Sequence record: PQ351811
DNA length: 64,000 bases
DNA from: Shigella phage SSG23
Reading direction: 5' to 3' (one strand)
Shown one piece after another: positions 3,298 through 50,733 of the stretch; within the stretch, counting starts at the first letter, position 1, and each line of letters begins with the position of its first letter. The position numbers and the translations under genes are program-made. The notes beneath the pieces are model-generated. The model searched no databases. It was not told the DNA's origin and saw only the letters and a program-made list of their open reading frames with translations.

Positions 3298-3326
3298 TTG
3301 ACGCGGGGAGAAATCCCCGTTATACT
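3298..3326 (+). promoter_or_regulatory. sigma70-like early promoter with spacer hairpin (PeSL-like)
   Basis: TTGACG, 17-nt spacer containing CGGGGA-GAAA-TCCCCG hairpin, TATACT. Confidence 0.6.
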
Positions 3327-3350
3327 CTCTAAAAATTGATGGAGGTTATT

Positions 3351-32247: not shown

Positions 32248-32249
32248 TT

Positions 32250-32453: not shown

Positions 32454-32841
32454 ACGACGCATCACTGCAACTGGTTTGGGTAATCATCATGCATGGATGG
32501 TTAATCCAGACAAAAATCCTTATAAACTGTACGATACAACGATTAAACCGTGGGATAATGGCGTGTGGAAAACATCACCGACAACAGCACCTATTATGAC
32601 CGATCCGAAACCGATTAGCCCGATGGCGGAACCAGTACAGATTAAGCCGTTACCATACCAGATAACGACGAATAGCATCGCCAACAAGCAAGAAAATGAT
32701 ATTGATATGATCTACGAGATGATTAAACTTTGGCGTGATGTTTATCTGGGTGTTCTTTGCAACACAGATAAAAGTGCACATGCGGCAGCGGTACTTGCAT
32801 CTCATGCGGTAGACGAAGCCAAAAAGAAATTTAGCAAGTAA
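32446..32841 (+). CDS. hypothetical protein
   Basis: 131-aa ORF followed by strong terminator at 32852. Confidence 0.45.
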   Translation: MTERRITATGLGNHHAWMVNPDKNPYKLYDTTIKPWDNGVWKTSPTTAPIMTDPKPISPMAEPVQIKPLPYQITTNSIANKQENDIDMIYEMIKLWRDVYLGVLCNTDKSAHAAAVLASHAVDEAKKKFSK

Positions 32842-32851
32842 CTGATTATTA

Positions 32852-32880
32852 AGCCGATCCTTGTGGTCGGCTTTTTTTTA
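32852..32880 (+). terminator. rho-independent terminator
   Basis: AGCCGA-tccttgtgg-TCGGCT followed by T8. Confidence 0.7.
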
Positions 32881-32892
32881 TTTTAAAAGTTG

Positions 32893-32921
32893 TTGACTTC
32901 CATAATCCAACATTGCATAAT
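32893..32921 (+). promoter_or_regulatory. candidate early promoter
   Basis: TTGACT, 17 nt, CATAAT; follows terminator at 32852. Confidence 0.45.
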
Positions 32922-32952
32922 ACACCCATACCAAACAAAAGGAGATTCAAAA

Positions 32953-33159
32953 ATGAAAGTACGTTGCATTGAAACCGATCACATCAATTATAGCTTTAGT
33001 GTCGGGTGTGATTATGATGTTGATATATTCACGGACAATAGCGGAAACACATTTGATGTAGTTCACGGTGACTATATTTGGTTTTACTTTGACAAACAAC
33101 AACTTACTGCAACCAAACGAAATGGTGATCCGGTAGCAAAATTTGAAATAATCGAATAA
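32953..33159 (+). CDS. hypothetical small protein (paralog of 61313..61531)
   Basis: 68 aa, MK..C start and C-terminal DPVAKFEIIE; flanked by promoter-hairpin cassettes. Confidence 0.45.
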   Translation: MKVRCIETDHINYSFSVGCDYDVDIFTDNSGNTFDVVHGDYIWFYFDKQQLTATKRNGDPVAKFEIIE

Positions 33160-33165
33160 AGTCTA

Positions 33166-33200
33166 TTGACACCAGAACAAGGGAGTAGTAACATACTCCC
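33166..33200 (+). promoter_or_regulatory. PeSL-like promoter-hairpin cassette
   Basis: TTGACA, 17 nt, TAACAT; GGGAGTAGTAACATACTCCC hairpin; conserved leader CCATACCAAACAAAAGGAGAATCA. Confidence 0.6.
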
Positions 33201-33225
33201 ATACCAAACAAAAGGAGAATCAAAG

Positions 33226-33498
33226 ATGAGCAACAAAAACAGCAAAGTGTTAGCAATTGCAGATAAAGTAGGCTACTGGAAATGTTGGGATGATATGGAG
33301 AAATTAGGCGGTCGCTATCTCGATAACTTAGAGTTGCATTATTGCCAAGCGCGTAATGCAGAAGTTGCGGGAGTAGCAATCGAAGATATTCCGTCTAAAG
33401 TCTTCGGATTCTCTAAAGATGATACCTTAGAGTATGTTTTTAAGGCTGTAATGGATCAAGCATGGGAAGACGCAGAGACACGCGCTCTTGATTGGTGA
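33226..33498 (+). CDS. hypothetical protein
   Basis: ORF with AAAGGAGAATCA leader shared by neighbouring cassettes. Confidence 0.45.
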   Translation: MSNKNSKVLAIADKVGYWKCWDDMEKLGGRYLDNLELHYCQARNAEVAGVAIEDIPSKVFGFSKDDTLEYVFKAVMDQAWEDAETRALDW

Positions 33499-33502
33499 TA
33501 AT

Positions 33503-33673
33503 ATGAACTGGTATAAAATTTGGAAAAATCAGGTGGAGGCTTATCTAGGGTATAAGCCCACCGACGAAGAATTACTCGATGCAATGTACGAAGACGGACT
33601 AAATCCGAAAGTAGCCGCGCAAGAATACGCGGAATGGATGAAGGTCGAAGATAACCTAAAGGGGAAACTATGA
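33503..33673 (+). CDS. hypothetical small protein
   Basis: 56-aa ORF. Confidence 0.35.
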   Translation: MNWYKIWKNQVEAYLGYKPTDEELLDAMYEDGLNPKVAAQEYAEWMKVEDNLKGKL

Positions 33674-33894
33674 AGAAAATGATTGCAATTGCTTTGCTGG
33701 CTAGTGCATGTACTGTAAATGCTAATACCGCAGCGATGGTCGCGGCTGTAACTGCTGCAAATGCTTCCGTTATGGCTTCACAAGAGGCAGCACGCCAGCA
33801 AGCACAACAAGAAGCCCAGCGAAAAGCACATGAGGCGACGAAAAATTTTCACGAAAATAATAAAAAAGAAGTTGACGCCAAAGGTCGTCGGTAG
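33670..33894 (+). CDS. small secreted protein (signal peptide)
   Basis: N-terminus MKKMIAIALLASACTVNA is a typical Sec signal peptide; Ala/Gln-rich mature part. Confidence 0.45.
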   Translation: MKKMIAIALLASACTVNANTAAMVAAVTAANASVMASQEAARQQAQQEAQRKAHEATKNFHENNKKEVDAKGRR

Positions 33895-33907
33895 TATTAT
33901 ACTCCCA
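33872..33907 (+). promoter_or_regulatory. PeSL-like cassette (degenerate hairpin) overlapping the end of a coding region
   Basis: TTGACG, 17 nt, TATTAT; GGTAGTA...TACTCCC; inside the 3-prime end of ORF 33670..33894. Confidence 0.5.
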
Positions 33908-33934
33908 TACCGAAACGAACTGGAGGAAATAAAA

Positions 33935-34177
33935 ATGGTTAAAGTTAATGTTATCGAAGTTGCACTGTACGACGCTGGGATCTTCCTGAATGAAAAAGAA
34001 GCTGCCGTCCTCGACGAACTGAAAACTGTTTTTGTTCCTGTAGTAGAAGACGTAGAAGCAATCAAAATCGCTTCTCGTAAACTGTCCCATGAAGCATTTG
34101 ACATGATTGATCCGGTTTTCAAAGTTATGCACGAATGCGCGGTTATGATGACCGAAGAAGAAGCGAAAAATTTCTAA
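33935..34177 (+). CDS. hypothetical protein
   Basis: ORF with GGAGG RBS. Confidence 0.45.
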   Translation: MVKVNVIEVALYDAGIFLNEKEAAVLDELKTVFVPVVEDVEAIKIASRKLSHEAFDMIDPVFKVMHECAVMMTEEEAKNF

Positions 34178-34183
34178 AATTAG

Positions 34184-34218
34184 TTGACGTAAAGAAACGG
34201 GAGTAGTAAGATACTCCC
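34184..34218 (+). promoter_or_regulatory. PeSL-like promoter-hairpin cassette
   Basis: TTGACG, 17 nt, TAAGAT; GGGAGTAGTAAGATACTCCC hairpin. Confidence 0.6.
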
Positions 34219-34241
34219 ATACCAAACGAAAGGAGAATCAC

Positions 34242-34454
34242 ATGAAATCTATCGAGCAAGTAGTAACCGAGTTTATGAGCTACGAAGGAAACCGCATCTT
34301 TGGACGTTCTCAAGTTCGCGAGATCGTAGAAGAAGTTGCGAGAGAGTTTGCGGAATCTGGTCACATTATCACGAAAGACCGTAAAGAAGAAGCAGTAAAC
34401 CAGATCATGGCTATACAGAAAATGCGTATTAATTTACGCGTGGGTAAACATTAA
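34242..34454 (+). CDS. hypothetical protein
   Basis: ORF with conserved AAAGGAGAATCA leader. Confidence 0.45.
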   Translation: MKSIEQVVTEFMSYEGNRIFGRSQVREIVEEVAREFAESGHIITKDRKEEAVNQIMAIQKMRINLRVGKH

Positions 34455-34464
34455 AAATAGTTGT

Positions 34465-34493
34465 TGACAGGGGATCGGTGATCCCCTATAATG
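34465..34493 (+). promoter_or_regulatory. PeSL-like promoter-hairpin cassette
   Basis: TTGACA, 17-nt spacer made of GGGGATC-GGT-GATCCCC hairpin, TATAAT. Confidence 0.65.
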
Positions 34494-34523
34494 AACTCAT
34501 CAAGACAACGAAGGAGAATCAAA

Positions 34524-34679
34524 ATGAAACATACTCACAAATTAATGGTTAAATTTGAAGGTGCTAAGGGATATGAACGTTACGGTGTATTCTTCTCTGA
34601 GGATGATGCATGGGATGCTGGTTTGGCAACGTTCGCCGAACACAACAACATTGAAGACTTTACTGTAGAAGAAATTTAA
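34524..34679 (+). CDS. hypothetical small protein
   Basis: ORF with conserved GAAGGAGAATCA leader. Confidence 0.4.
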   Translation: MKHTHKLMVKFEGAKGYERYGVFFSEDDAWDAGLATFAEHNNIEDFTVEEI

Positions 34680-34687
34680 AAAAGTAG

Positions 34688-34722
34688 TTGACACCGGATT
34701 ATGGGAGTAGTAAGATACTCCC
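34688..34722 (+). promoter_or_regulatory. PeSL-like promoter-hairpin cassette
   Basis: TTGACA, 17 nt, TAAGAT; GGGAGTAGTAAGATACTCCC hairpin identical to the copy at 34199. Confidence 0.6.
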
Positions 34723-34749
34723 ATCAAGAAAAACATTGAGGAATATATT

Positions 34750-35508
34750 ATGAAAAACATTATCGCTGCTATCGTTCTTTCTGCTACTGCTTTCGGTGCT
34801 AATGCTGCGTCCTTTGATTGCACTAAGGCTACTACCAAATCAGAGAAGTTTATTTGTGCTAATGAGTCAATCTCCGCACTGGATTCTAAACTTCATGAAG
34901 TATATGTTAAGGCCGTTAAGATTGATCCGTCTCTGAAACAAGAGCAACGTAACTGGAATAAAACTGTTCGTGATACTATGATCAATATCGGGCAGATTCA
35001 GCCACTGGAGGCTGTATATAACGCTCAAATCCAAAACTTGATGAATGTATTACCTAAAGAAGAAACAGCGTCAGAAAGCGATTCAGAGACTTCTGCGAAG
35101 GTTGAAAAAGAACAACCGAAACAGGAAGCAAAAGTGGTAGAAGAACCGAAGGTTGAAACTTTTACTTATCAATGCAACATTCGCTATGAGTGGAGTATTA
35201 AAGATGGAATTTCCACCAAAATTAAAGAAGCGCCACTGTATGCCAAATATGGAAATCAACCAGGAGATCTTCAAGTAACAATTAAAAATGGGGAAATGGT
35301 CGATTTTGTATACATTGATGAATACAACGTACACAAAGCAAACGTACAAGAAACCGTTATGACTAAAGGCGGGTTTTATAAAAATGTTGGCAAGAAAGAT
35401 CTATATGAATACTCCGTTTTCGAACCAAACGACGGAACTATTCGATTTGAAAAACGTCATCCTACATTCGGTGGCGCAATTGATGTAGATCAATACGTTT
35501 GCAAGTAA
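34750..35508 (+). CDS. secreted protein with DUF1311/LprI-like N-terminal domain
   Basis: Signal peptide MKNIIAAIVLSATAFGANA followed by SFDCTKATTKSEKFICANESISALDSKLHEVY, resembling the lysozyme-inhibitor LprI N-terminal signature. Confidence 0.55.
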   Translation: MKNIIAAIVLSATAFGANAASFDCTKATTKSEKFICANESISALDSKLHEVYVKAVKIDPSLKQEQRNWNKTVRDTMINIGQIQPLEAVYNAQIQNLMNVLPKEETASESDSETSAKVEKEQPKQEAKVVEEPKVETFTYQCNIRYEWSIKDGISTKIKEAPLYAKYGNQPGDLQVTIKNGEMVDFVYIDEYNVHKANVQETVMTKGGFYKNVGKKDLYEYSVFEPNDGTIRFEKRHPTFGGAIDVDQYVCK

Positions 35509-35519
35509 GAGGTTAAATT

Positions 35520-35798
35520 ATGCAATTCAATAACATGAAGATCACAAAAGATTGGTGGGATGCTATGAGAGCTAACGACCGGATCGGAATTGGAAAGGCA
35601 GAAAAGACAGTTGTTATTGTCGAGTATAAAGCGACGCAAGATCTTTTAATTAAGGAACTTATTCGAGCGGGGAGCTATCAAACACCGGAGGGTCTTATTG
35701 ACATGATGGTTGATAACATGTATAGTGACGAACCGCCAAACATTAAACAACATTACAAGCAGTATTACCGAAAGTGGCAGAAGTATAACCGAAAATAG
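35520..35798 (+). CDS. hypothetical protein
   Basis: 92-aa ORF. Confidence 0.45.
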   Translation: MQFNNMKITKDWWDAMRANDRIGIGKAEKTVVIVEYKATQDLLIKELIRAGSYQTPEGLIDMMVDNMYSDEPPNIKQHYKQYYRKWQKYNRK

Positions 35799-35821
35799 TT
35801 TGTTGACGTGAGGATTATATT

Positions 35822-36013
35822 ATGGTAATTTTTAATCGCGATGGTATCATAGTTCGGCAACACCCATTCCTTGAATACTATCAGGTTGAACAATGGGGAT
35901 ACGGGGATTGCTCGCGCTCATACGGTCAAAGCTGGAGATACCGTACAGTTTTTGAATCAACTAATATTGACAAAGTACGACAGAAAGTTTTAGAACTTCT
36001 TAACGATAAGTGA
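35822..36013 (+). CDS. hypothetical protein
   Basis: 63-aa ORF. Confidence 0.4.
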   Translation: MVIFNRDGIIVRQHPFLEYYQVEQWGYGDCSRSYGQSWRYRTVFESTNIDKVRQKVLELLNDK

Positions 36014-36023
36014 GGATTACATC

Positions 36024-36392
36024 ATGGAAATTCAAAACAATTACGAAAAATGTGTTATTATCAATGATCTGCAACGTCAATTGCACCACTACGAAACCGA
36101 TTATAAGACAGCAACCAAAACCGGAAAACTGAAAGTGTGGGAAGTTTGGTATAACCGAAACTATCTAGGCAGTATCCACAAACTTGATCGCAGTGATGTT
36201 TATACAATGCATGTAGGCGCTTGCGGTGAATCGGATGTAGCATTTAATTTCATGGAAGCACTTGCATTCTATGTAGAATATCTGGTAGACTATATCGAGT
36301 TGGAAGAGGAAGTGGTAGAATTGCTTCCTCCACCGGAAGAAGCGCCGGAAGCAACTATCCTTAAAGCATTAAAGAAAATCTTTGTTAAGTGA
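36024..36392 (+). CDS. hypothetical protein
   Basis: 122-aa ORF. Confidence 0.45.
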   Translation: MEIQNNYEKCVIINDLQRQLHHYETDYKTATKTGKLKVWEVWYNRNYLGSIHKLDRSDVYTMHVGACGESDVAFNFMEALAFYVEYLVDYIELEEEVVELLPPPEEAPEATILKALKKIFVK

Positions 36393-36400
36393 GGTGAACT

Positions 36401-36733
36401 ATGAAAAATGTACTGATTGTATGGGAACTGATTCCAGAAACTACCGAATTGTACATGGTACAGGTTGACGATAAAGAATTTGAAATTCTGAAACGCGTCA
36501 ACTGCAAATATATTAACATTGATGACATGACCCCAGAAATGGACTATGTAAACTATGCTCTCATGCAGCCTAGCTGGATTATGGATGAAACTAAAGCAGA
36601 TGCCGAATCGCTGGGTGTACCGGAAGAAGTATTAGCGAAATGGCATCAATTCAAAGTTGAGATAAAAGAGGGTGAACCGTTTATCCCTAGCGGTATGATC
36701 GACGCGGTGATCGTAACAGGTTTTCATCTGTAA
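36401..36733 (+). CDS. hypothetical protein
   Basis: 110-aa ORF. Confidence 0.45.
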   Translation: MKNVLIVWELIPETTELYMVQVDDKEFEILKRVNCKYINIDDMTPEMDYVNYALMQPSWIMDETKADAESLGVPEEVLAKWHQFKVEIKEGEPFIPSGMIDAVIVTGFHL

Positions 36734-36745
36734 GGGTATTCTATA

Positions 36746-37078
36746 ATGTTTAATTATGACAAATATGAATCATGGAAAGCATCCGAACTGAAAGAGGCAG
36801 CGCGGTTAATCACACCGCGTCTTTATCCGGTACTGTTTAGCGCCGATAAAGTAACAAGGGAAGTAAACGAGGCGCTATCGGTTTTAGGTTATCTAATCGA
36901 TAAAGTAGAGAAAACATCGGTATTCACAAATAGTGTAGAATATACCCGTTATCGAGTGTTTTTAGATTCCCTGCTCGTTGTCATTAAGGCGCTAAATGAT
37001 CATAACTACACCATGAACATGACGAAAATAATCGACGAAGCAAGAATTATGACAGAGAATATTTTCGGAAGATTTTGA
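36746..37078 (+). CDS. hypothetical protein (tandem paralog A)
   Basis: 110 aa; C-terminus IIDEARIMTENIFGRF parallels the next gene. Confidence 0.45.
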   Translation: MFNYDKYESWKASELKEAARLITPRLYPVLFSADKVTREVNEALSVLGYLIDKVEKTSVFTNSVEYTRYRVFLDSLLVVIKALNDHNYTMNMTKIIDEARIMTENIFGRF

Positions 37079-37080
37079 TT

Positions 37081-37191
37081 ATGAAAGATGATGAATCATT
37101 GAAAATTGCACTGGTTATTCTATTACAAGGTATAGAATTAGCAAACCACGAAAAAATGTTGATACAACAACGTGAAATTATGAGAGGTTGA
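37081..37191 (+). CDS. hypothetical micro-ORF
   Basis: 36-aa ORF between the two paralogs. Confidence 0.25.
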   Translation: MKDDESLKIALVILLQGIELANHEKMLIQQREIMRG

Positions 37192-37193
37192 TT

Positions 37194-37508
37194 ATGAGTG
37201 ATATTAAAACCGATGAAGAAATGCAGGATATTGCAAAGGAATTAACCACCATCATGATCCGTCGCGGATCGTATAATGCAAAAACCATTATCGATGAAGT
37301 CAATACAGCGATTAAGGCAATCGAGAAAGTAAAGTCAGACGTTGCATTTGAAAGATACACATGGGAAGATATTCGCAATCGAAGCCGCTATAATTTCTTT
37401 GTTGATTGTATTATGTCAATGGTTGAACATTACGGGCATAGCATGAATGACATTATCATCGATGCACGTAAGCTGGCAGAGAATGTTTACGGGAAGTTTC
37501 CAGAATGA
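37194..37508 (+). CDS. hypothetical protein (tandem paralog B)
   Basis: 104 aa; C-terminus IIIDARKLAENVYGKF parallels 36746..37078. Confidence 0.45.
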   Translation: MSDIKTDEEMQDIAKELTTIMIRRGSYNAKTIIDEVNTAIKAIEKVKSDVAFERYTWEDIRNRSRYNFFVDCIMSMVEHYGHSMNDIIIDARKLAENVYGKFPE

Positions 37509-37753
37509 AATTAGAGCAAGCGATTGTTTATTTTGAGATGGGCTATGATATTGCTCGTGTAGAATGGGAAGATGGTGATTTTGTTCGATTGATTGATCTT
37601 CCAGAAACAGCTATTGCACTGGTCAAAGTAGAAAACGGCGTACAACGAAATTACGCGTTTTCTGACGAAGACAAACAAGCCGATGACTGGTACGCTACCT
37701 GTTTTCATCATACAGCGTCAAAATTCGATTCAGGCGCGTCTATGCGTCAATAA
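37505..37753 (+). CDS. hypothetical protein
   Basis: 82-aa ORF; last + gene before the convergent late block. Confidence 0.4.
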   Translation: MKLEQAIVYFEMGYDIARVEWEDGDFVRLIDLPETAIALVKVENGVQRNYAFSDEDKQADDWYATCFHHTASKFDSGASMRQ

Positions 37754-37760
37754 AAAAGAA

Positions 37761-37782
37761 GGGGAGGCCGAAAGGCTTCCCC
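37761..37782. terminator. bidirectional terminator between convergent early (+) and holin t (-) genes
   Basis: GGGGAGGCC-GAAA-GGCTTCCCC; T-rich on both flanks (TTT on +, TTCTTTTTT on -). Confidence 0.6.
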
Positions 37783-37788
37783 TTTAAG

Positions 37789-38445
37789 TTATCTAATCCT
37801 TCCGAGGATTCTGGCAGATTGATTACAAAGAGTATCTAAATTCTCGATATCAATATCTGGTTTATTCTTCCATGCAATGGCAATACTACCAGAATAGACA
37901 TTATCGAGATTGAATATAGGACAAGAATACATGAATCCTATATCGATATTCTCTAATTTTTTCTCCCTCGATGGAATATACTGGAAATCTTTATCGGTAA
38001 AATAGGATTTACCTAAAAGATGCCTACGATATTCTTCACTCGTTTTATTGATAGGGAATCCGCCTAAATTCTTTTCATCGATTGTATGCGGTAGCTTTCC
38101 TTCATATGCCACCAAATCAACAAAATAGTTTAGGTTTTTCGGACGAAAACTAAAAACAGCAGAAAAATCGGCATCAGCCGACACATGAACTATCTGTAAC
38201 TGCTCCTGTGCTGCATTATCAAAATTGCGGTCTTTCTCTACCTGGAGAACGTGAGCATAAGTCTCATAACGAGTCTCTTTATACAAAGCAAACAACTCGT
38301 TTTTGCTATAAACGACAAATGCTAATATGGACAACACGACGGCAGCAAAAACACGAAGTACGAGCAACTCCGTGCTTTTAGTTGTGAAAATAGCGCGCAG
38401 GACATTTGAGATAGCAAAGTCTTTCTCTTTTTCAGAAACTTGCAT
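37789..38445 (-). CDS. t: holin T
   Basis: 218 aa; LQIVHVSADADFSAVFSFRPKNLNYFVDLVAYEGKLP, MYSCPIFNLDNVY and C-terminal ARILGR match T4 holin T. Confidence 0.9.
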   Translation of the reverse strand: MQVSEKEKDFAISNVLRAIFTTKSTELLVLRVFAAVVLSILAFVVYSKNELFALYKETRYETYAHVLQVEKDRNFDNAAQEQLQIVHVSADADFSAVFSFRPKNLNYFVDLVAYEGKLPHTIDEKNLGGFPINKTSEEYRRHLLGKSYFTDKDFQYIPSREKKLENIDIGFMYSCPIFNLDNVYSGSIAIAWKNKPDIDIENLDTLCNQSARILGRIR

Positions 38446-38478
38446 ATAATGCCCTAAGATAACTATGACAGTGTACTC

Positions 38479-38718
38479 TTATTTAGGTACTTGACTATCA
38501 CTAGGTTTATCTTGCTCGTTGCTATCTTCCGACTGATCTTTATTAAACTCCTTATAAAGTTCTTCCACAAAACGGTCATCAATTGGCGTATTGGTATAAG
38601 CCGCAAGACGACGAGCGCAATAGAAGAAAATTTTAGTGAGCATCTTTTCACTAATTAACTTTGATAATAGTTTCATTCCGAAACTAGACAAAGCACCAAT
38701 GACGATATTATAGACCAT
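38479..38718 (-). CDS. hypothetical small protein
   Basis: 79-aa ORF between gene 37 and t, with hydrophobic N-terminus; not gp38-like. Confidence 0.35.
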   Translation of the reverse strand: MVYNIVIGALSSFGMKLLSKLISEKMLTKIFFYCARRLAAYTNTPIDDRFVEELYKEFNKDQSEDSNEQDKPSDSQVPK

Positions 38719-38760
38719 AGCCGTTTCTCCTTAGTAGTTTCCCTTCCCTGGGAGTTTTCC

Positions 38761-41703
38761 TTAATTCTTTTTAAGTTCCGCTAGTTCAGCTTTAACGGCT
38801 TTCAATTCTTCGCTCATTTCCTGAAACGCCTTAATTAAAAGAGCGTTGACAGCAGAGTTAGAAATTGTTAATATCTCTTCTGGTTTATCTGGATCGCCGA
38901 CCTTAGAAGTTGTTACGGCTTCCGGCAATTCTTTTTCAAGATCCTGTGCAATAATACCAACTTCATGAGCAATGACAGTACGGTCAGTTAAAGATTTAAC
39001 CTTATCGTAGGTGTATACAGTCAAGCGATTAACTTTATCGGTGGCATTCTCTTTATACTCTTCCTTGTTGATTTTAAGGCGAGCATCAGAACGAATATAC
39101 ACATCGTTAAACGAACCGTTACGACCTACCGACATATCACCGGAGGCGTTAAAGTCAAAGTTGGCGTCATGAACGTTTAGGCGAGCTAAAGCATTGGTAA
39201 TAGTACCACTAGGAACATGTACACCCATTGCTGCGATATGATATTTACCCCAATGCGTCGCTTTCCATACGTTATGTGCCGAGTCAACGGATTGAGGACA
39301 CCCAACCATAAGGCCAGCAGCACGGTCACGCCAGCTAGCCCAACTACCGCCAGCAACTTCACCACGAATCAGGCCATTACCGCCACCAGTTACAGTACCA
39401 GCTTCCAATTGGATCATTTTATCTGCAAATTTCCACGTCTGGGCTTGTTTCTGACCACGGAAGCGAATAACACCAGCATCATCGGAATACATCAAACCTA
39501 GTTCTAAACCGTCTGGATCTCTAAACCAGATATGCTTATTACCAGTGCGACGAAATTCAATATCAGCACCGTTCAAAAGAATATTGCCGCCAGTGTGAAT
39601 TGCTTGAGGCTTAACAGTACCGTTGATGGCAAACTCAATTGCAGAAGTACCCGGACCGCCAGGCCGTTGAGTATACCAATGCCAACCACTTTCATCTACA
39701 CACTCGAAAACCTGTTTACGGGAACCACTATTACCCCATGCACGAATGTTAAAGCCAGATGTGGCTGTACCCTTGCCCCACGTTAATTTCCCTTCTGTGG
39801 TTAAATCCCCTCGGAAGTGAGCAAGCAATCCACCATCAGCATTACGTTCGGTTGTAAAATGTGTTCCTTTCGTGTCTTCAAATTGTAAAACATTATATCG
39901 TCCAGCGTTACTATTCCCCCAATGGTTAATAGTGAAAGAATCCATCGACTGATTCCCACCCGCAGAGAAAGTAAGCAATCCTTTTTCTAAGAATACATTG
40001 TTGCTAAAACGAGCAGCACGGCTATCTCTTTCGAGAACTAATGCGCCTTCGTTACCATCACCACCTAAAGTAACTTTACCATTTGTCAAATCGTAGATGA
40101 ATGGTCGGTTGCCGTTCCATCCACCAAAACGGTCATTTTCTTCTGTGGAAAGAAGATAAATTTTCGTACCGTCATTACGCCAGAATGCACCGTAATTACC
40201 AAAGATCATGCGATATGCATCTGAGTTAGCGGAATAGTATTGTCCGTTGGTATATACAATTTTTGTTTTTCCTGTAGTCAAATTTACTTGTCCACTACCT
40301 TCCAAATCAAATGAGTTAGCACCAACATCATTACGCCACACAAAACCATCACTAGTACCATCCGCATGACCGATATAACCACTACGTTGGTTTTTACCAT
40401 CACGACGATCCCACCACGCCATATAGGCAGCTTGATCAGTCTGGCGATGTAAAGTCATCGCATTACCACTACCGTGCAATTCCATTTTACCAGTAATTAC
40501 ATATCCTTTATAGCTACCAGGTATAGCACTATTAGAATCAACTCTAAGAACTTCCGTAGAATCTGTAACACCAGTAGCAAGACGATATACAGCACCCTGA
40601 ACGGTTTCATGCCAAACCATTTCATTATAGTTACTACGGAATTTACGAATATATTTCCTACCAGTACCTCTATCATTACTCAAGTGAACAATATCATAGC
40701 TATTTTGTGTGTTGTCGTCAAAACTCAACACACCTCGTTTGTTTTCGGTGTTGAAAAGAGTTACAGCGCGACCGCCAATAACATTATCGCCAGCAGGACG
40801 TTCAGCAACAAAATCTGGAACGTCATGCACTGTTAAATTAACATCAACACTTTTACCAAATTCAACAATAACGTTATCAGTATAACGCTGATATTTCACA
40901 TAGATATCATAGTTATCGCCAGAAGTGTTAACAGCCAAAACATCAAATGATTTGTTTGTATTTCGGCGATATGCAATAACGTTAACACCTTTAGGGCGAT
41001 TATTTCCACTACGAATAACAATTTCTACAATATCAACTTGATCGTATGCAGTAACGTTATATCCGTTGCCGCCATGAATACGGAAAAATACGCTACGCCC
41101 ATTTTGTGGAATCATTGCAGTTGCTAATTTAAAATAGCCTTCAACGGTATCAACAGGAACTGTAGCAAGTTTAACGTTCTTAACAAACATTCTATCTACT
41201 TCTTGTTTGCTATAAACGTTCAATTCTCCTGGAGTTGGCTTATCACCTTCGTGATACATGCGGTAACTGAATCTCTTGTTGCCATCCTTATCAAAACCAT
41301 AGGTTTTAACCTGAGAGGAACTAGAACCATATTGAAATTCAAACCCGCGACCGTGTGCTTTACCGTTAGAATGAGGAATGTTCAGAATCAAGTTAGACCA
41401 ACCATCAGCATTATTCGTTCGAAACGCACCAAATTTGTCAAGGTCGCGAGCGGTTGAATCGTCCATATAGTTAGCGGTTTTACCTAAAATATAGTTGTCG
41501 CCGTCAACCTTACCAGCGAATCTAACTTGTCGGTCATAAACCGGAGGACAACTTAAATTGATAATAGCACCGGAATCATTTTTAGTAAGAAGATATTGAT
41601 CCGCAAGGTTGATTGCCAATTCCCCCGGATTCATCGTACCAGCATCAGGTCGACGACCTTTAGTGCTAGTGCGTTTAAATTGGATTCTGCTTAAATCTGC
41701 CAT
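38761..41703 (-). CDS. 37: long tail fibre distal subunit gp37 with C-terminal intramolecular chaperone domain
   Basis: N-terminus MADLSRIQFKRTSTKGRRPDAGTMNPGELAINL matches T4 gp37; C-terminus has SDARLKINKEEY-type autoproteolytic chaperone motif and a coiled coil. Confidence 0.9.
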   Translation of the reverse strand: MADLSRIQFKRTSTKGRRPDAGTMNPGELAINLADQYLLTKNDSGAIINLSCPPVYDRQVRFAGKVDGDNYILGKTANYMDDSTARDLDKFGAFRTNNADGWSNLILNIPHSNGKAHGRGFEFQYGSSSSQVKTYGFDKDGNKRFSYRMYHEGDKPTPGELNVYSKQEVDRMFVKNVKLATVPVDTVEGYFKLATAMIPQNGRSVFFRIHGGNGYNVTAYDQVDIVEIVIRSGNNRPKGVNVIAYRRNTNKSFDVLAVNTSGDNYDIYVKYQRYTDNVIVEFGKSVDVNLTVHDVPDFVAERPAGDNVIGGRAVTLFNTENKRGVLSFDDNTQNSYDIVHLSNDRGTGRKYIRKFRSNYNEMVWHETVQGAVYRLATGVTDSTEVLRVDSNSAIPGSYKGYVITGKMELHGSGNAMTLHRQTDQAAYMAWWDRRDGKNQRSGYIGHADGTSDGFVWRNDVGANSFDLEGSGQVNLTTGKTKIVYTNGQYYSANSDAYRMIFGNYGAFWRNDGTKIYLLSTEENDRFGGWNGNRPFIYDLTNGKVTLGGDGNEGALVLERDSRAARFSNNVFLEKGLLTFSAGGNQSMDSFTINHWGNSNAGRYNVLQFEDTKGTHFTTERNADGGLLAHFRGDLTTEGKLTWGKGTATSGFNIRAWGNSGSRKQVFECVDESGWHWYTQRPGGPGTSAIEFAINGTVKPQAIHTGGNILLNGADIEFRRTGNKHIWFRDPDGLELGLMYSDDAGVIRFRGQKQAQTWKFADKMIQLEAGTVTGGGNGLIRGEVAGGSWASWRDRAAGLMVGCPQSVDSAHNVWKATHWGKYHIAAMGVHVPSGTITNALARLNVHDANFDFNASGDMSVGRNGSFNDVYIRSDARLKINKEEYKENATDKVNRLTVYTYDKVKSLTDRTVIAHEVGIIAQDLEKELPEAVTTSKVGDPDKPEEILTISNSAVNALLIKAFQEMSEELKAVKAELAELKKN

Positions 41704-41746
41704 TTGATAAAATCCTTAAACGGTTATTAGAATAATATTATTTAGA

Positions 41747-41765
41747 AAAGCGGGGAGATAATCCC
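41747..41765 (-). other. intergenic stem-loop between genes 36 and 37
   Basis: GCGGGGA-gataa-TCCCCGC. Confidence 0.4.
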
Positions 41766-41773
41766 CGCTAAAA

Positions 41774-43264
41774 TTAGAAAGTACCAAAATCAATCACCGC
41801 ATTAAGTGGAACCGCGCCAACCTCTGCGGGTGTCGGTTTATGGCCTTCGTGGTAAAGTTCATAGCGATCTGTGTCTTGAGTATTTCCACGCGCTTTAATG
41901 AAAACAGCTTTAGAATCGTGTGTAATACCCAATTTTTCGGTGGCTTTGATATCGCTGATACGGTGAATCATAGCCGTGCCATCGGCACTATTTAACCCAG
42001 CATAGTAGTTATCACCGTTATATGCACCTCTAGCCGTTTTAACGCCATTTGCAGCCGGAACAGTTAACGGTCCTGTCATGGTGTCGCCAGTTACGTTAAC
42101 ATAGCGAATATCGGCTAATTTACGGTGATCTACATAGTTCCATGCAGTCCACGATTCATTAGAACAGGAACGCCAGCACATCGGATGGTCAATAGATTCA
42201 GGATAATACACCTGAACAATTCGACGAGTACCGACCGCATCTTCTGGGCGGTATACCATCAAAACGCCGTTATAATAGCTATCAGACGGTTTATTAGTAC
42301 CTGATCCAGCATTTTCCACACGATAGATACCGCGATTAATAAGAGTGTTCCAATCAACGTTTCCAATGATGGTTGGATTTGCTACCATTGATTTTTTCTC
42401 AAAGTAGCTCAAACGAACCAATTCATTAGGACCAGCAGGATCGTTTGTCGCCAACATTCTAGGCGCTTGCAAGTTACCTTCCATAATATCACCAGCACGT
42501 TTAACCTGTGCATCATTGGTGACATTACCTAGACCAACATCGGCTTTAGTTGGTTTATTGTTGGTGTGATAAAAACGACCTTCTTTGCCATTAACAAAAA
42601 TGGTAGGCTCATCTTTACTTCGGAATACCAACGTATCAAGAACGTTACCATAATAGATTTTAGTGGCATCAAAATTAATTAAATCACGTCCCCTTGCAAT
42701 TAATTTCGAATCAACCGATAATTTAACTGTGACAGTGTTTAAATTATATGTTCCTGAGAGAGTATCACCGCGACGGGAGACTAAATCCAAATCATTATTC
42801 GTCGGTTTATTGACAGGGCTATAGACGCGCTGACCTGTGTCTTTAATGGTTGTCCCTTCGATAGTCCCTTTAGACTTAAATTCGCCCGTTGTGGTGTCAA
42901 TATAAGCCATGATAACACCATCACGGGCATTAACAAAGCCGATTGACTTCCATGAATGCAAACCCCAGCTTACACCGTCAAAATTAGCGGCATCGCTCTG
43001 TCCTTTAAAAATACCGTTCTTTTTGGTTTCCCCAGCCGATGCACTACCTACGCTTAAACCTTCCTCAAAATGAACTTGCTTTTGAAATGTACCACCCTCG
43101 GATGCACTAACAGCATCAAAATCGGTAGCCGAAGGTCTATCAAAAGCGGTATAGATTTTATGACCTTTGTAGAAAAGCTGATCTCCCGCTGGCTGGATCG
43201 TCAAGTTTCCTTGCGTCCAAATGGGAGATCCGCCTACAGTAGATCCATGTTTCAAATCTGCCAT
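41774..43264 (-). CDS. 36: long tail fibre distal connector gp36
   Basis: N-terminus MADLKHGSTVGGSPIWTQGN matches T4 gp36 (MADLKVGSTTGGSVIWHQGN); longer than the T4 protein. Confidence 0.8.
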   Translation of the reverse strand: MADLKHGSTVGGSPIWTQGNLTIQPAGDQLFYKGHKIYTAFDRPSATDFDAVSASEGGTFQKQVHFEEGLSVGSASAGETKKNGIFKGQSDAANFDGVSWGLHSWKSIGFVNARDGVIMAYIDTTTGEFKSKGTIEGTTIKDTGQRVYSPVNKPTNNDLDLVSRRGDTLSGTYNLNTVTVKLSVDSKLIARGRDLINFDATKIYYGNVLDTLVFRSKDEPTIFVNGKEGRFYHTNNKPTKADVGLGNVTNDAQVKRAGDIMEGNLQAPRMLATNDPAGPNELVRLSYFEKKSMVANPTIIGNVDWNTLINRGIYRVENAGSGTNKPSDSYYNGVLMVYRPEDAVGTRRIVQVYYPESIDHPMCWRSCSNESWTAWNYVDHRKLADIRYVNVTGDTMTGPLTVPAANGVKTARGAYNGDNYYAGLNSADGTAMIHRISDIKATEKLGITHDSKAVFIKARGNTQDTDRYELYHEGHKPTPAEVGAVPLNAVIDFGTF

Positions 43265-43297
43265 AAAGTAACCTCAAAAATTAGTTATAGTTCCGAG

Positions 43298-43305
43298 TAT
43301 TTATA
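43298..43305 (-). promoter_or_regulatory. T4-type late promoter (TATAAATA) upstream of gene 36
   Basis: + strand reads TATTTATA, i.e. TATAAATA on the - strand, about 35 nt upstream of the gene 36 start. Confidence 0.5.
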
Positions 43306-43419
43306 GAATGTTAACAAAATATCGCTTCGCGACGTGCCGTAGGCACTGACTATTTTTTAACCGAAACAAACTTTTCTATATTCTAAAGATCTTTCTTCGT
43401 TTTGGCTACGTTTTAACCA

Positions 43420-43455
43420 ACTGTATAAAAATAAAGCCGACCACATGGATCGGCT
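43420..43455 (-). terminator. rho-independent terminator after gene 35
   Basis: On the - strand: AGCCGA-TCCATGTGG-TCGGCT followed by TTTATTTTTATAC; nearly identical to the + strand terminator at 32852. Confidence 0.6.
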
Positions 43456-43466
43456 TGTTAAAAATG

Positions 43467-44606
43467 TTAATCAACATCGAACTCTTTAAAGTTGTTGGAT
43501 GTGATATGTTTATTATCTCTAGGCAGCTTAAGAAGACTCATTACAGGGTTAGTAAAATCACCGTTATCCTGAATATGAGTTGTTCTAACACCATTAACAC
43601 CAAAGGAAGTAGGACCAGTCGTTTTGACAACCCCACTGATCGGCGTTATTAGTATGTTTCTAACTTTAACAATACCTTCATTGGAGTTGGTTGGATATCT
43701 AACGCAACCAGTTACTACACTATCAACTCCTTCCGGTACAGTATAAACAGCTTCAAACTTTTCCCATTGATCTTTTTTGCTGGCATTGTATCGAACACCA
43801 GTTTTGTATTGTCCATCAGTAAAATAGTTGTGATAGAAACGCGCTGTTACGTTAGCTGCGGCTGCGGCACTATCACGGAACAATTCAAAAGATATTGATA
43901 GTTTGTCACCCGCCTTTATGTTAAAATCTTCAAGTGGTGCGCTGATCTCATCATGAGGCCATTGTATTAGCTCGAAATGTTCGGCATCTTCGCTAACATA
44001 CTCAACCGGATAATCTAAAAATCTCTGTGGTGTTCCTGTGATCGCAAGATCATCTATAGTATCATAAACCTTCTCAATTTGTATAGACGAATCTTGTCCT
44101 TCCCCGTGGGTCGCTTGCATACCCTCACAAACAATTTTACCCATTTTCGTAGAATAAATTGCTGCATATGATACACGAGGCATTTGCTGTAACAAAATAT
44201 GGTTAGGGAATGATACAGCCCCCAGCTTAGAGAATACATCATCGCTTACCGGGTCTGCAAACAATTCTCCATGCGTTGCCATCGCAATGATATAGTCACC
44301 TTTCAGCAAAGAAAGATAATCACGCATTGCCAAAACAGCACCCCGACCATAGAATACCTTTTCTTCGTGTAGTTGTCCAGTTTGGGTAAGAACTTTAAAA
44401 TTTAGGCCAGTTTCATAGCCAGTCCCGACGATCTCCACTCCATTAAATCTAATCCTTGCTGGTTTGGTAGAATCCGCATTAGATCCGCGTACTTCCAGCT
44501 TATACATCACAGAGTTGTTTTCTGAAATGCTTGTAAATGTCGCGGAGTCCTCATCGAAATGCGCAAATTTAATTCCAGTGTTGCGTAATTCTATCTCTTG
44601 TGTCAT
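43467..44606 (-). CDS. 35: long tail fibre hinge connector gp35
   Basis: 379 aa versus T4 gp35 372 aa; conserved position between 34 and 36. Confidence 0.7.
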   Translation of the reverse strand: MTQEIELRNTGIKFAHFDEDSATFTSISENNSVMYKLEVRGSNADSTKPARIRFNGVEIVGTGYETGLNFKVLTQTGQLHEEKVFYGRGAVLAMRDYLSLLKGDYIIAMATHGELFADPVSDDVFSKLGAVSFPNHILLQQMPRVSYAAIYSTKMGKIVCEGMQATHGEGQDSSIQIEKVYDTIDDLAITGTPQRFLDYPVEYVSEDAEHFELIQWPHDEISAPLEDFNIKAGDKLSISFELFRDSAAAAANVTARFYHNYFTDGQYKTGVRYNASKKDQWEKFEAVYTVPEGVDSVVTGCVRYPTNSNEGIVKVRNILITPISGVVKTTGPTSFGVNGVRTTHIQDNGDFTNPVMSLLKLPRDNKHITSNNFKEFDVD

Positions 44607-44618
44607 AATAACCCCATA

Positions 44619-44634
44619 GGGGGCTTTCGCCCCC
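44619..44634 (-). other. intergenic stem-loop between genes 34 and 35
   Basis: GGGGGC-tttc-GCCCCC. Confidence 0.4.
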
Positions 44635-44639
44635 TTTAA

Positions 44640-47600
44640 TTAGTCTTCCCAGATAAAGTCTACGGTACGAGTCAGATTATTGGCGATGATTTTAACATTA
44701 CCAACTTTGATCCAATCACGAACCGTCATAGAGTTCATTAAACCACCTTCCGCAACCACTGCCCCGATTTCCTGAGCGGTAGGCTTATTCTGTTTGGTGT
44801 AAATTTCACCCCAGGCGGTCCATTGACCACCAGTACCGGAACGGATATAATGTTTATGAGTACCATCAGGGGACCAAAGCTGGGTAAGCCCGTCCTCGTC
44901 AGTGCCCCATTGCATCAGAGTACCGTTTTTCTTCTCTGGATAAGTATCTTTGATGTTCTTGGTAGTAACGCGCATATTCCAGAAACCGATATTACCGATT
45001 GCCGGAGCGGTTGCCGCGCTAGCTTCATGCTTAACAGAAACAATAGGCGCATTATCCATAATCAGCTTACCGACCATTGTATCGCCAGCATTCTTAACAA
45101 ACTGACGGTTAAGAACTTCGTCAGCGTTTCCTGCGTGTACGATCTGATATTTCTGTCCGGCGATCTCTGTAGTTAACGTTTGATAACCTGCCTTGATGTT
45201 AACACTTCCACCGTGACCGATATTCAACATACCATCAGGGGAACGAGTCATTGCCGGATTAGACTGGTCAACAATGTATAAACCGCCTTGTTTCGCATAC
45301 AGGTTACGACCTGCAATAAAGTCTCGATATGCTGCCGCGTCGCCATTATGTTCCATAGCAAAGGCGTAATGCTCGACAAATCCAGAATCGTTAATCTTAC
45401 CAAAAGCGATAGCATCACTATCAACAACTTGCGCTGTTCCAGTACCACCAACGATAATAGACCATGAGTTTTCCATACCTTCCGATGCGGTTGTGCCGTG
45501 CAGAGTAATTCCGGTGTGACCGTCAACTCCACGCTCACCCAATACCAGATGACCATTACTCGGATCATCAGTCGAGTTCTTAGTCACAAACAGAGTTTCA
45601 AAGGAACCAGATTTTAAGCACTCTAAATCGCCCTTCACGTTAACGTTTTTATTAAACGTGTAATTGCTCTCAATGGTCTGGTCAATGTCTCTACGCGCCC
45701 ATTTAGCGGCCTCTACGTTACCCAATTTCAAACTATTCTGAGCGGTTGCCATCTTAGGTAAGAAATTAGCAAGTGCGTAGTTTAATCCTTTAGGGGTAAC
45801 AGCTATTCCGTCATGCTGGTAATTTCCTAGTTCTTGAGTAGAACCTTGCAGATTATCACCAACAAAACAGTTTTCCTGAGTAGCAACTTTCAAGAAACCA
45901 CGACGCGCTTCGGTTGCTTTCCATGTATCCTCTGTCTGAACAACATATTTGAAGTTCTTCGGAGAAATTGCTACATTGTCCAGTGTACCAGCGACGGTTT
46001 CGGCTTGAGTACCAACTCGGATAATACCTTCTTTAACTTCGGTGGCCTTTTTGCCTTGCAGCTTTTTAGGGGTAATGATCGTGGCGTCATCTTTTCCCGC
46101 ATCGGTAAGCTGAGTAGTAGCAACTTTAGCGACACCTTTTGTATCTTCGGTTGCATCAAGACCGCTGATCATGATACCTTGCCACAAATCACCAGTAAGG
46201 TTAAGCCCCTGAGTCGGATCTACTTTCAAACGCTGTGCATTCTCAAAGAAGGTTTTAATCTTCAATGGGGTAGAAATGCGAGCGTCGTCACGACCTGCGT
46301 CAAATTCCGGCTGAGTTGCAATTTCTGCTAAACCGTGTAGAGTTTCCGTCGCACGGCGAGTATGCAGCTTTTTAGGCGTGATGATATGGTTATCACTCTG
46401 ACCTAAGTTTGTTTCTTCCTGAGTTGCAATTTCAGCGATACCAGTACGCGATTCGGTAGCAGTACGTTTCGTTAGCGTGCGAGTAGTGATCAGCAATGCA
46501 TCTTGCGGGGTTGATTCTGTAGCCCCTTGCACTTCCGCGTCAGTTGCCAGATAGCCAACACCACGGGAAGTTTCGGTCGCCTTGACCTCGTTGATGTTTT
46601 GTGGTGTAACAATTTTAGCATGGTCATTGATGTTATAGATCCCTGTACCAGCTTCGCCACGTCGAGCGGCAGCACGACCGCCTACCTGAACAATTTCAGC
46701 AATACCAGCGAGGTCTTCGGAAGCGCGACGTTCTTCTAATTTCTTAGGAGTAATAGCGCGGGTATCGTCTAAACCTTCATTGGTTTCGTGCTGGGTTGCA
46801 ATTTCCATCACACCACGACGGGCTTCGGTAGCAACACAGTCATTTAACTTTTTAGGTGTAACGATAACATCATCCAGGAAGCTGGAACCAGTATCTTGAT
46901 GCGTTTCCGCCTGAGTAGCAATACGAGCAATACCGCGTCGAGTTTCGTTGGCGGTTTTATTAGCCAGCATTTTTGGCGTTACTGCAACTTCGTCGCTAGG
47001 ATTCTCTTCATGGTTTTTATTCGTTTCATTCTGGGTAGCCAGTGCAATTACACCAACACGCTCTTTGCGAGTCGGATCTACTCGTTCTACGATCGGGTGA
47101 GCGTGTGCTACCAACCAGTGTTTCTTACCATCATCACCTTCTGAATAAGAGAACTCCAGATAAGGTACATAATCATTTGCAGCGTTGAACGACAATTCAG
47201 ACACTTCCTTCCACGTCTCGGTCCCGTTGAATGGGTACTCGCTACGTTTCGGAAACTGAACCATGTTTTTCTGCATAAGGATTTTTGTATCCTCTGCGGC
47301 GGTGATAATACGGCAATTCTGGTTTCCGTGCATATACTGCATAGAAACTTGGATACGATCACCAGGCTCGACGTTGGTCGGTAGCGTCAGAGTAACATCA
47401 TGATCACCAAATACAGCAACATAGCTATTAGGTTGCAAGCGAGTGTCATCGATGATCGGTTTAAGACGAACAGACTGATCACCATCCCACACACGCCATA
47501 AGTTTTCCGGCTTATCAAAGATGAATACACCATGACCGCTACGCTTACCGATAATCTCTTTTAGACCGAACGTGCCGATTGATTGTTCTTCTGCGTGCTC

Positions 47601-50724: not shown

Positions 50725-50733
50725 GGGGTATGT

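Follow-up and report, generated by a model that had tools for sequence, protein, structure and literature searches.

The distal long-tail-fibre locus of an RB49-like Shigella phage: an S74-type chaperone domain in gp37, a displaced gene 38 and a small homologue of PM2 P18

What forms the receptor-binding tip of a T-even-type long tail fibre when the position directly downstream of gene 37 is held, not by gene 38, but by a small ORF? The question is raised by a 64,000-nucleotide stretch of DNA from Shigella phage SSG23 (PQ351811; this whole stretch is the window referred to below), in which the interval 38479-39100 spans an ORF encoding 79 amino acids (ORF79) and the 113 codons with which gene 37 ends, separated by a gap of 42 nt.

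Layout of the locus

Positions 1-47800 of the window align with Shigella phage SFHK24 (PQ351812.1) with 0 mismatches. SFHK24 is an RB49-like Krischvirus, and the locus is the standard distal long-tail-fibre locus of such a phage. (All window features specified below lie on the minus strand.) The gene 36 homologue (41774..43264, 496 aa; phrog_16472, phrog_1425), whose RB49 counterpart is annotated as 'hinge connector of long tail fiber distal connector', lies upstream of gene 37 (38761..41703, 980 aa), which encodes the distal long-tail-fibre subunit (phrog_1699, 'long tail fiber protein distal subunit', E 5.4e-171); the product is 100% identical to the SFHK24 CDS, which is likewise annotated. 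ORF79 follows (38479..38718; PF26925 Phage_PM2_Gpl, phrog_402), its ATG preceded at 8 nt by an AAGGAG ribosome-binding site, and is placed 33 nt upstream of gene t (37789..38445, 218 aa), which encodes a T4-type holin (Phage_holin_T, 206.5 bits in Pfam; phrog_860). No other credible ORF lies between 37 and t, as had been claimed from the outset. Upstream of gene 36, TATAAATA at 43298..43305 matches the T4 late-promoter consensus exactly; no second perfect match lies near the 36-37-ORF79-t block. It is a match to the consensus and no more, exact copies in the window being no commoner than expected by chance.

RB49 has the same gene order, 36-37-ORF251w(dc5)-t, reportedly described by Desplats 2002, with gene 38 likewise displaced to a distant locus (45367-46143 in RB49 coordinates). 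It differs by allelic divergence only: its gp37 is 78% identical in amino acid sequence (60-73% in parts of the shaft) and has an identical NDVYIRSDARLK motif, its gp38 is 84% identical, and ORF251w matches ORF79 at 75 of 79 residues. The divergence of the gp37 shaft and of gp38 probably means a different host range. Within gp37, residues 426-537 (40093..40428) constitute a Gp34_trimer-like domain (PF21446, 134.3 bits), a region for which phmmer finds matches to the T4 gp34 structures 4UXE and 5NXF.

The C-terminal domain of gp37 and its predicted self-cleavage

The gp37 precursor (108.5 kDa) ends in ...NDVYIRSDARLKINKEEY...AELAELKKN. Residues 872-980, with the stop codon (38761..39090), constitute a Peptidase_S74 intramolecular chaperone domain (PF13884) at the extreme C-terminus of the protein. 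The Pfam match, which places residues 872-931 on model positions 1-58, has an E value of 1.4e-11 and scores 44.9 bits (the cut-off is 22 bits), and profile search of the C-terminus matches PDB entries 6F45_A (E 2.1e-11), 8JOV, 7DC3 and 3GUD. An AF2 monomer model has pLDDT 83-93 over residues 881-980, with a long C-terminal helix at the end, and <50 over residues 782-835 and 862-872, that is, upstream of the cleavage site discussed below. When Foldseek is run with the predicted structure, the best 11 matches are all intramolecular-chaperone domains (chains of 7DC3, 3GW6 and 3GUD; E 3.7e-5 for the top match, 7DC3), and the AF2 model and the Foldseek matches both place in the gp37 domain the fold that combines a β-hairpin 'tentacle' region with a C-terminal coiled-coil helix. 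The S74-type resemblance that the original prediction had proposed, and had suggested looking for by profile search, is thus present and far beyond chance.

The catalytic motif S872-D-A-R-L-K877 (39073..39090; Ser codon 39088-39090, Lys codon 39073-39075) directly follows D867-V-Y-I-R871 (39091..39105), which, as read from the sequence, would be the last strand of mature gp37 and the docking surface for gp38. Within DVYIR|SDARLK, the bond predicted to be cut joins R871 and S872. Essentially all homologues retain Ser872, Asp873 and Lys877; in the chaperone-domain alignment, whose sequences are mostly gene fragments, K877 is identical throughout and S872 is present in at least 90%. SDARLK aligns with SSDRRIK of S16 and SDERHK of GA-1, and is in register with 8JOV too. 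The Ser-x4-Lys spacing is identical to that of T5 pb1 (Ser1264/Lys1269; PMC4690869). DVYIR|SD is, moreover, identical to the motif published for the T2-like fPS phages, in which DVYIR^SD.RLKI is the cleavage and docking site and is aligned to S16 DLNVS^SDRRIKK (PMC7917993); the S16 site aligns in the same way with DVYIR^SDARLKI of the present gp37. Since the S74 chaperone has its Ser-Lys dyad (S872, K877) intact, gp37 is expected to process its own C-terminus at the SDARLK serine, with predicted products of 871 residues, retained as gp37, and 109 residues (12.2 kDa), released. Domain, dyad and fold are documented by the present analysis, and the sequence, the predicted fold and the relatives (S16, T5, K1F) together point to cleavage at this site.

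It is very improbable that the domain is instead a remnant without catalytic activity, retained on the mature fibre. In T5, Arg1250 and Asp1239 are upstream residues that sense trimer folding. Their candidate counterparts in gp37 are R861 and D856 or D850; that these catalysis-assisting residues are not confidently alignable, and that R861 is not invariant among the homologues, is what a dead domain has in its favour. The retention of Ser872, Asp873 and Lys877 speaks against loss of activity, as does a cleavage-site context that is the same as in T2-like phages, and a retained domain would, in addition, leave the gp38 docking surface buried.

For an active S74 domain, the following pathway of fibre assembly can be proposed. 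Gp37 would be made as a 980-residue precursor, with the last 109 residues serving as the chaperone that nucleates the fibre-tip trimer. After folding of the tip, Lys877 would activate Ser872 to cut R871|S872, and the chaperone trimer would leave. Cleavage would expose the DVYIR end of the gp37 trimer, at which one molecule of gp38 would dock.

The S16 long-tail-fibre tip, (gp37)3-gp38 (PDB 6F45, a structure said to be that of Dunne et al. 2018), has the same design, with an intramolecular chaperone at the end of gp37 that cuts itself off (in the present case, by prediction); upstream of the last strand the two gp37 proteins have no detectable similarity. K1F endosialidase (3GW6), GA-1 gp12 (3GUD), T5 pb1 (4UW8) and MyRF ICA (7DC3) have PF13884 and the Ser-x4-Lys dyad in common with gp37, and share with its domain the helical coiled-coil and β-hairpin fold (PMC4690869). 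In these four systems, what remains after processing (fibre or spike) serves directly as the tip that binds the receptor or carries the enzyme activity, whereas processing of gp37 would here prepare a docking site for a separate adhesin.

The gp38 adhesin and the fibre tip

A search of the 64-kb window with RB49 gp38 (tblastn) finds no gp38 homologue. The SFHK24 genome, however, encodes a full gp38 adhesin of the T2/S16 type at 50572-51351 of its record, beyond the window and at a distance of ~55 kb from gene 37. Its profile matches are to GP38 (PF05268, 246.9 bits) and Gp38_N (PF21721, 65 bits), and it matches S16 gp38 (6F45_D) over its full length (E 1e-50). In the N-terminal helices of its attachment domain the docking tryptophans W7 and W20 are present, and the third docking position, a Trp in S16 and also in the gp38 of a related contig (L011), is Tyr in SFHK24 and RB49. 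S16 differs further in that gene 38 of SFHK24 lies away from gene 37. In L011 the canonical order, g37-g38-ORF79-t, is kept; ORF79 and gp38 therefore coexist. Adjacency of genes 37 and 38 is a habit of the family and not a functional requirement.

ORF79 was correctly said to be unrelated to gp38: it has no match to GP38 or Gp38_N, and Pfam scans of it at E values up to 10 give noise only. The further claims of the original prediction, that the chaperone makes gp38 unnecessary, that gp38 has been lost with ORF79 in its place, and that the processed end of gp37 is the receptor-binding tip, fare differently. In their favour, the 64-kb window as a whole, the 37-t interval included, has no gp38 homologue, and T5 pb1 and the endosialidases are examples of chaperone-bearing fibres that bind receptors directly (PMC4690869). 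The presence of the adhesin gene in the same genome, together with the co-occurrence of gene 38 and ORF79 in L011, leaves next to no probability to this account; displacement of gene 38 is, moreover, a documented rearrangement in Krischvirus (PMC3157838), and ORF79 is related to PM2 P18, a protein that serves lysis in a phage without a tail (see below). In RB49, the chaperone domain of gp37 cleaves itself off, a gp38 monomer then attaches, and the host-range mutations E230K/Y231S map to gp38 (PMC9569957). The S16 structure and these RB49 mutations suggest that gp38 docks on processed gp37 here as well, so that the glycine-rich, T2/S16-type gp38 encoded at a distance, rather than the processed gp37 end, would be the receptor-binding tip.

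T4, which had been taken as the yardstick, is off target for this comparison because among T-even-like phages it is the exception (PMC6851490): most of them combine a self-cleaving gp37 with a gp38 cap (PMC9569957, PMC6851490). T4 gp37 has the homologous fibre position and neighbourhood (36-37-...-t), but it has its own needle-and-head receptor-binding domain and no S74 domain, and T4 gp38, unlike that of SFHK24, is a non-adhesin chaperone (PMC6851490), which serves gp37 alongside a second chaperone, gp57A. The arrangement in the present phage is an ordinary one of the T2/S16 type, already known, and the combination of self-cleaving gp37, gp38 cap, displaced gene 38 and a small ORF in its place has already been described for RB49. 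The understanding of T-even fibre assembly is unchanged by the present findings.

For host-range prediction and annotation in RB49-like phages the determinant to look for is gp38, possibly tens of kilobases away from the fibre operon, and annotation pipelines that are restricted to the vicinity of gene 37 will miss it. The gp37 C-terminus, of which the last 109 residues are predicted to be discarded, is not the receptor-binding determinant.

A tip module of gp37, consisting of the roughly 90 residues that lead up to the cleavage site and of the chaperone domain, is common to T5-like fibres (37-44% identity). One T5-like match was considered as pb1 and rejected; it is a short Epseptimavirus fibre. 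The shared module might itself bind O-antigen, against which stands the location of the RB49 host-range mutations in gp38.

ORF79 as a homologue of PM2 P18

What, then, is the gene between 37 and t? ORF79 matches phrog_402 with an E value of 5.5e-20, as does PM2 gp l (E 8.2e-14), and hhalign of the ORF79 family against PM2 gp l gives 93.4% and E 2.4e-7. PF26925 (Phage_PM2_Gpl) is precomputed on all 47 ORF79 homologues, including those that are at least 59% identical; direct Pfam and NCBIfam scans of ORF79 gave no match, in the case of Pfam with a set that does not contain the PF26925 model. By these profile comparisons ORF79 is a homologue of the PM2 lysis protein P18 (gene XVIII, gp l), homologues of which have been reported in RB49 and Felix O1 (PMC1950889). 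The two proteins have the E24/T42/D47-D48 motif region in common and both genes stand beside a holin gene, but PM2 P18, at 51 residues, is without the acidic C-terminal tail of ORF79. The N-terminus of ORF79, which had been called hydrophobic, is so only weakly (a Gly/Ala/Ser-rich helix with a Kyte-Doolittle value of 1.45), and the AF2 model has three helices at modest confidence (pLDDT 66, pTM 0.32). A locus search with a narrow ORF79 alignment retrieves Krischvirus and Ounavirinae loci only. When phmmer is run with ORF79 on a set of 1.8 billion representatives, a repeat protein of 3836 aa and another with 'YKYTDTPADKRSVDDLHKR' repeats rank close to the top; both were judged to be short-motif or compositional matches and were rejected as relatives.

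Members of the ORF79 family stand beside a holin or endolysin gene in 6 of the ~10 lineages examined. Krischvirus and another T4-like contig have a T holin as the neighbour, and a Vibrio siphophage has a GH108 endolysin; in L044 and a Shewanella prophage the adjoining gene encodes a Phage_lysozyme, and PM2 P18 itself is accompanied by holin gene k. In Ounavirinae (27 IMG/VR loci, Mordin and Pistou) the neighbour is an annotated putative holin; this 'holin' is so by annotation only, its PHROG being of function not known. No lysis gene adjoins the family member in 7-11/SU10-like podophages, where it lies inside the head-tail structural module, or in the T7-like case, where it follows the terminase.

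Homology and gene neighbourhood are thus the observed basis for assigning ORF79 a role in lysis; it most likely belongs, and acts in lysis, with the adjacent holin t. A need for P18 in disruption of the outer membrane at lysis is known for PM2 only (reportedly from Krupovic 2007, as cited in PMC1950889, PMC6356626), and the function in the present phage is accordingly put forward by analogy. As a complete account of the locus, a self-cleaving gp37, a gp38 cap encoded at a distance and ORF79 as a non-fibre gene that would act in lysis together with t is, in our estimate, highly probable.

Two other roles for ORF79 have to be weighed. If it were a minor structural protein, or a factor in the assembly of fibres or virions, this would fit its position directly downstream of the tail-fibre gene in Krischvirus and Ounavirinae, the placement of relatives within the structural module of 7-11/SU10-like and Lahexavirus phages, and probable co-transcription with genes 36 and 37 from a late promoter. 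Yet the characterised homologue, P18, comes from a phage that has no tail fibres, other members follow endolysins with no fibre gene adjacent, and the upstream fibres vary between the S74 type in Krischvirus and a gp37_C type lacking S74 in Mordin, which argues against a specific pairing of ORF79 as chaperone with a fibre client; a structural role is improbable. A somewhat higher, though still low, probability attaches to a holin-like or antiholin-like regulator of T that sets lysis timing or inhibition and does not disrupt the outer membrane. ORF79 is small and helical, with the N-terminal helix already described, and three myovirus lineages have the family member right beside t or a putative holin gene, in many cases with stop and start codons overlapping or nearly so. 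RB49-like phages, moreover, have T4-type spanins (PMC6139136), so that an extra outer-membrane factor is not obviously needed, whereas PM2 has neither spanins nor endolysin. Against a regulator of T, in PM2 it is P17 (gp k) that serves as holin, and the target of P18 is the outer membrane, which it helps to disintegrate (PMC6356626); nor do family scans find any similarity of ORF79 to RI or RIII.

On a wider view, P18-like proteins (PF26925) may be a widespread and overlooked lysis component of tailed phages, placed beside the holin and serving either as a disruptor of the outer membrane that is independent of spanins or assists them, or as a regulator of T, a generalization to which we would give a little less than an even chance. 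If it is true, the T4-like lysis of Krischvirus has an extra, uncharacterised player. All Krischvirus and Felix O1-like records examined here annotate ORF79 as 'hypothetical'. The 'hypothetical protein' between 37 and t gains from the present analysis a homology, to PM2 P18, that was documented but unannotated, and with it a concrete lysis phenotype to test.

Organization of the locus

Genes 36 (41774-43264, 496 aa), 37 (38761-41703, 980 aa), ORF79 (the 79-aa open reading frame at 38479-38718) and the holin gene t (37789-38445, 218 aa; Phage_holin_T, 206.5 bits) follow one another in that order on the minus strand. The gap between 37 and ORF79 is 42 nt, that between ORF79 and t is 33 nt, and an AAGGAG ribosome-binding site lies 8 nt 5' of the ORF79 ATG. 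The interval singled out by the original prediction spans ORF79 and the final 113 codons of gene 37, and every sequence feature that it described is present. By megablast, 37700-41800 is 100% identical to Shigella phage SFHK24 (PQ351812.1; Straboviridae, Krischvirus) and matches RB49 and ~60 relatives at 85-94%. (The correspondence with SFHK24 extends without a mismatch over window 1-31759, which is record 67342-99100, and window 31700-47800, which is record 99041-115141; operationally, window position x corresponds to record position x + 67341.)

The single exact TATAAATA near this block, at 43298-43305, is directly upstream of gene 36, and no terminator-like site was found on the coding strand between 37, ORF79 and t. 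Judged by such consensus matches, 36-37-ORF79-t may constitute one late transcript. A 5-bp GC-rich hairpin (TTCCC-TTCCCT-GGGAG, 38739-38754) lies in the 42 nt that separate the stop codon of gene 37 from the start codon of ORF79; it is flagged as terminator-like on the non-coding strand only, its coding strand being devoid of a T-run. The gene 36 homologue is more than twice as long as T4 gp36 (~220 aa; PMC3157838) and scores below threshold for Pfam Phage_T4_gp36 (21.2 vs 26 bits).

The C-terminal chaperone of gp37

That gp37, the distal long-tail-fibre subunit, ends in an S74-type intramolecular chaperone, as originally predicted, is supported by a Pfam Peptidase_S74 match, by the Ser872/Lys877 pair, and by profile and fold comparisons. 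The Pfam match covers aa 872-931 (model positions 1-58; 44.9 bits vs cut-off 22, E 1.4e-11), with Ser872 at the first model position in the context NDVYIR-S872-DARL-K877. When gp37 is aligned with 13 homologues (46-94% identical), K877 never varies, and conservation reaches at least 90% at S872, at D873 and along the DVYIR strand. The final 199 aa match PDB 6F45 chain A, a fragment of S16 gp37 (phmmer, E 9.6e-5); with the profile of the gp37 alignment this improves to E 2.1e-11, and the same profile matches 8JOV, the MyRF ICA domain 7DC3 and the GA-1 chaperone 3GUD, with SD.R.K in register in each. The AF2 model (pLDDT 83-93 across aa 881-980) ends in a 31-residue helix, which is the "coiled coil" of the original prediction, and its best 11 Foldseek PDB matches are all chaperone/ICA domains (7DC3 foremost, at E 3.7e-5 and TM 0.67, then 3GW6 and 3GUD).

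In T5 pb1 (Ser1264/Lys1269) and K1F, the serine is activated by a lysine five residues on, and the chain is cut only once the trimer has folded (PMC4690869). We infer from these relatives that the folded gp37 trimer would likewise self-cleave, at R871|S872, and release its chaperone; the predicted products are an 871-aa mature gp37 (96.3 kDa) and a 109-aa, 12.2 kDa fragment.

The chaperone domain and the ~90 residues preceding the cleavage site (gp37 aa 782-963; 38761-39360, minus strand) are 37-44% identical to the fibre ends of T5-like EPS7, SH9 and poul149. Their identity to some Tequatrovirus gp37s is ~60%, a pattern suggesting that this module of the tip is transferred horizontally from one type of fibre to another. 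A strong Gp34_trimer domain is also present within gp37 (aa 426-537; 40093-40428, minus strand; 134 bits), and structures of T4 gp34 and of Mu tail-fibre S are among the phmmer matches of gp37. This internal domain is evidence that domains have been shuffled between the proximal and the distal subunits of the fibre.

A displaced gene 38

No gp38-like ORF is found anywhere in the 64-kb window. In RB49, gene 38 is annotated at 45367-46143 and genes 37 and t lie far away, at ~152-155 kb; tblastn locates a gene 84% identical to RB49 gp38 at SFHK24 record 50572-51351, ~16 kb ahead of the window start and ~55 kb from gene 37. Its product (Pfam GP38, 246.9 bits; Gp38_N, 65 bits) matches S16 gp38 (6F45_D) over its full length (E 1e-50). 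Among ~19 Krischvirus records common to the locus megablast and the RB49 gp38 tblastn, gene 38 lies tens of kb from 37-t, and its displacement has been documented (PMC3157838, Trojet et al.).

The Krischvirus-like IMG/VR contig L011 (UViG_3300045988_033703, 1325-5930) retains the canonical order, with genes 37, 38, ORF79 and t consecutive, encoding a 926-aa gp37 (S74, 42 bits; SDVYIR^SDSRLK), a 266-aa gp38 (GP38, 222 bits; Gp38_N, 71 bits) and a homologue 97% identical to ORF79. Thus, ORF79 adjoins t with or without gene 38 and is no substitute for it; the proposal that ORF79 had replaced gp38 fails on this gene order and on the SFHK24 gene. All three docking tryptophans are present in L011 gp38; the third is Tyr in SFHK24 and RB49, whose gene 38 is displaced.

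The S16 cleavage site DLNVS^SDRRIKK has been aligned with DVYIR^SDGRLKI of T2-like phages, and the DVYIR strand described as the gp38 docking face (PMC7917993, Salem et al. 2021); the gp37 motif here is exactly DVYIR^SDARLKI. By analogy, one gp38 would dock on this face and bind the receptor. For RB49, Efimov et al. describe a self-cleaving chaperone domain on gp37 and the subsequent attachment of a gp38 monomer, and they map the host-range mutations E230K and Y231S to gp38 (PMC9569957). In T4, gp37 forms a needle and gp38/gp57A serve as chaperones, an arrangement that is atypical (PMC6851490). A practical consequence for annotation is that the gene for the adhesin should be sought across the whole genome, not just beside gene 37.

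ORF79 and the lysis genes

ORF79 matches phrog_402, a family of unknown function (E 5.5e-20), as does the 51-aa product of PM2 (AF155037) gene l, which overlaps the end of gene k (E 8.2e-14). PF26925 (Phage_PM2_Gpl) is precomputed on all 47 ORF79 homologues found, and hhalign of PM2 gp l with the ORF79 family profile (probability 93.4%, E 2.4e-7) aligns 42 columns that include a conserved Glu and a T.T..DD motif. Genes k and l of PM2 encode its lysis proteins: P17 (gp k) perforates the cytoplasmic membrane, whereas P18 (gp l) aids outer-membrane disintegration (PMC6356626). Krupovic and Bamford had noted homologues of P18 in "PaP3, Felix 01, and RB49" (PMC1950889). The predicted ORF79 fold, of modest confidence, has three helices, the N-terminal one weakly hydrophobic, and an acidic disordered tail.

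By analogy with its relatives, ORF79 would act in lysis, probably as an accessory protein working with t. Its family adjoins the T holin in Krischvirus and another T4-like contig, an annotated putative holin in Ounavirinae (27 IMG/VR loci, Mordin, Pistou; stop and start codons touch) and holin gene k in PM2; other neighbours are a GH108 endolysin (Vibrio siphophage), a Phage_lysozyme (Shewanella prophage) and a lysozyme-domain protein (locus L044). Lysis linkage is lacking in a T7-like contig (3' of terminase) and in 7-11/SU10-like podophages and Lahexavirus, where the PF26925 genes (L006 4001-4183, L007 3992-4192, L045 4001-4183) lie in the head-tail structural module, adjoining the SU10 adaptor or virion structural proteins. 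An accessory lysis function leaves this structural placement unexplained. For ORF79 itself, a holin regulator is a conceivable, if rather doubtful, reading, and an assembly role is improbable. RB49-like phages also carry T4-type spanins (PMC6139136), so it is not obvious why they would need a P18-like factor. ORF79, a "hypothetical protein" in annotations, would be better named a "PM2 P18-like putative lysis protein".

The S74 domain, Ser-Lys dyad, fold, gp38 gene, P18 homology and gene neighbourhoods were computed in this analysis; already published for RB49 and relatives are the gp37 S74 domain, the cap formed by gp38, the displacement of gene 38, the small ORF that occupies its former position, and the homology of that ORF to PM2 P18. 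The present locus is one more allele of that arrangement.

Convergent with t is an 82-aa ORF (37505-37753, plus strand), "hypothetical" in the SFHK24 and RB49 annotations, that matches Pfam Tad2-like (Thoeris anti-defence 2-like, PF11195; 28.4 bits vs cut-off 25, E 2.4e-6). A 252-aa ORF (34750-35508, plus strand) with a signal-peptide-like N-terminus and an LprI (lysozyme inhibitor, DUF1311) domain at aa 24-76 (26 bits vs cut-off 22) may be a phage-encoded periplasmic protein.
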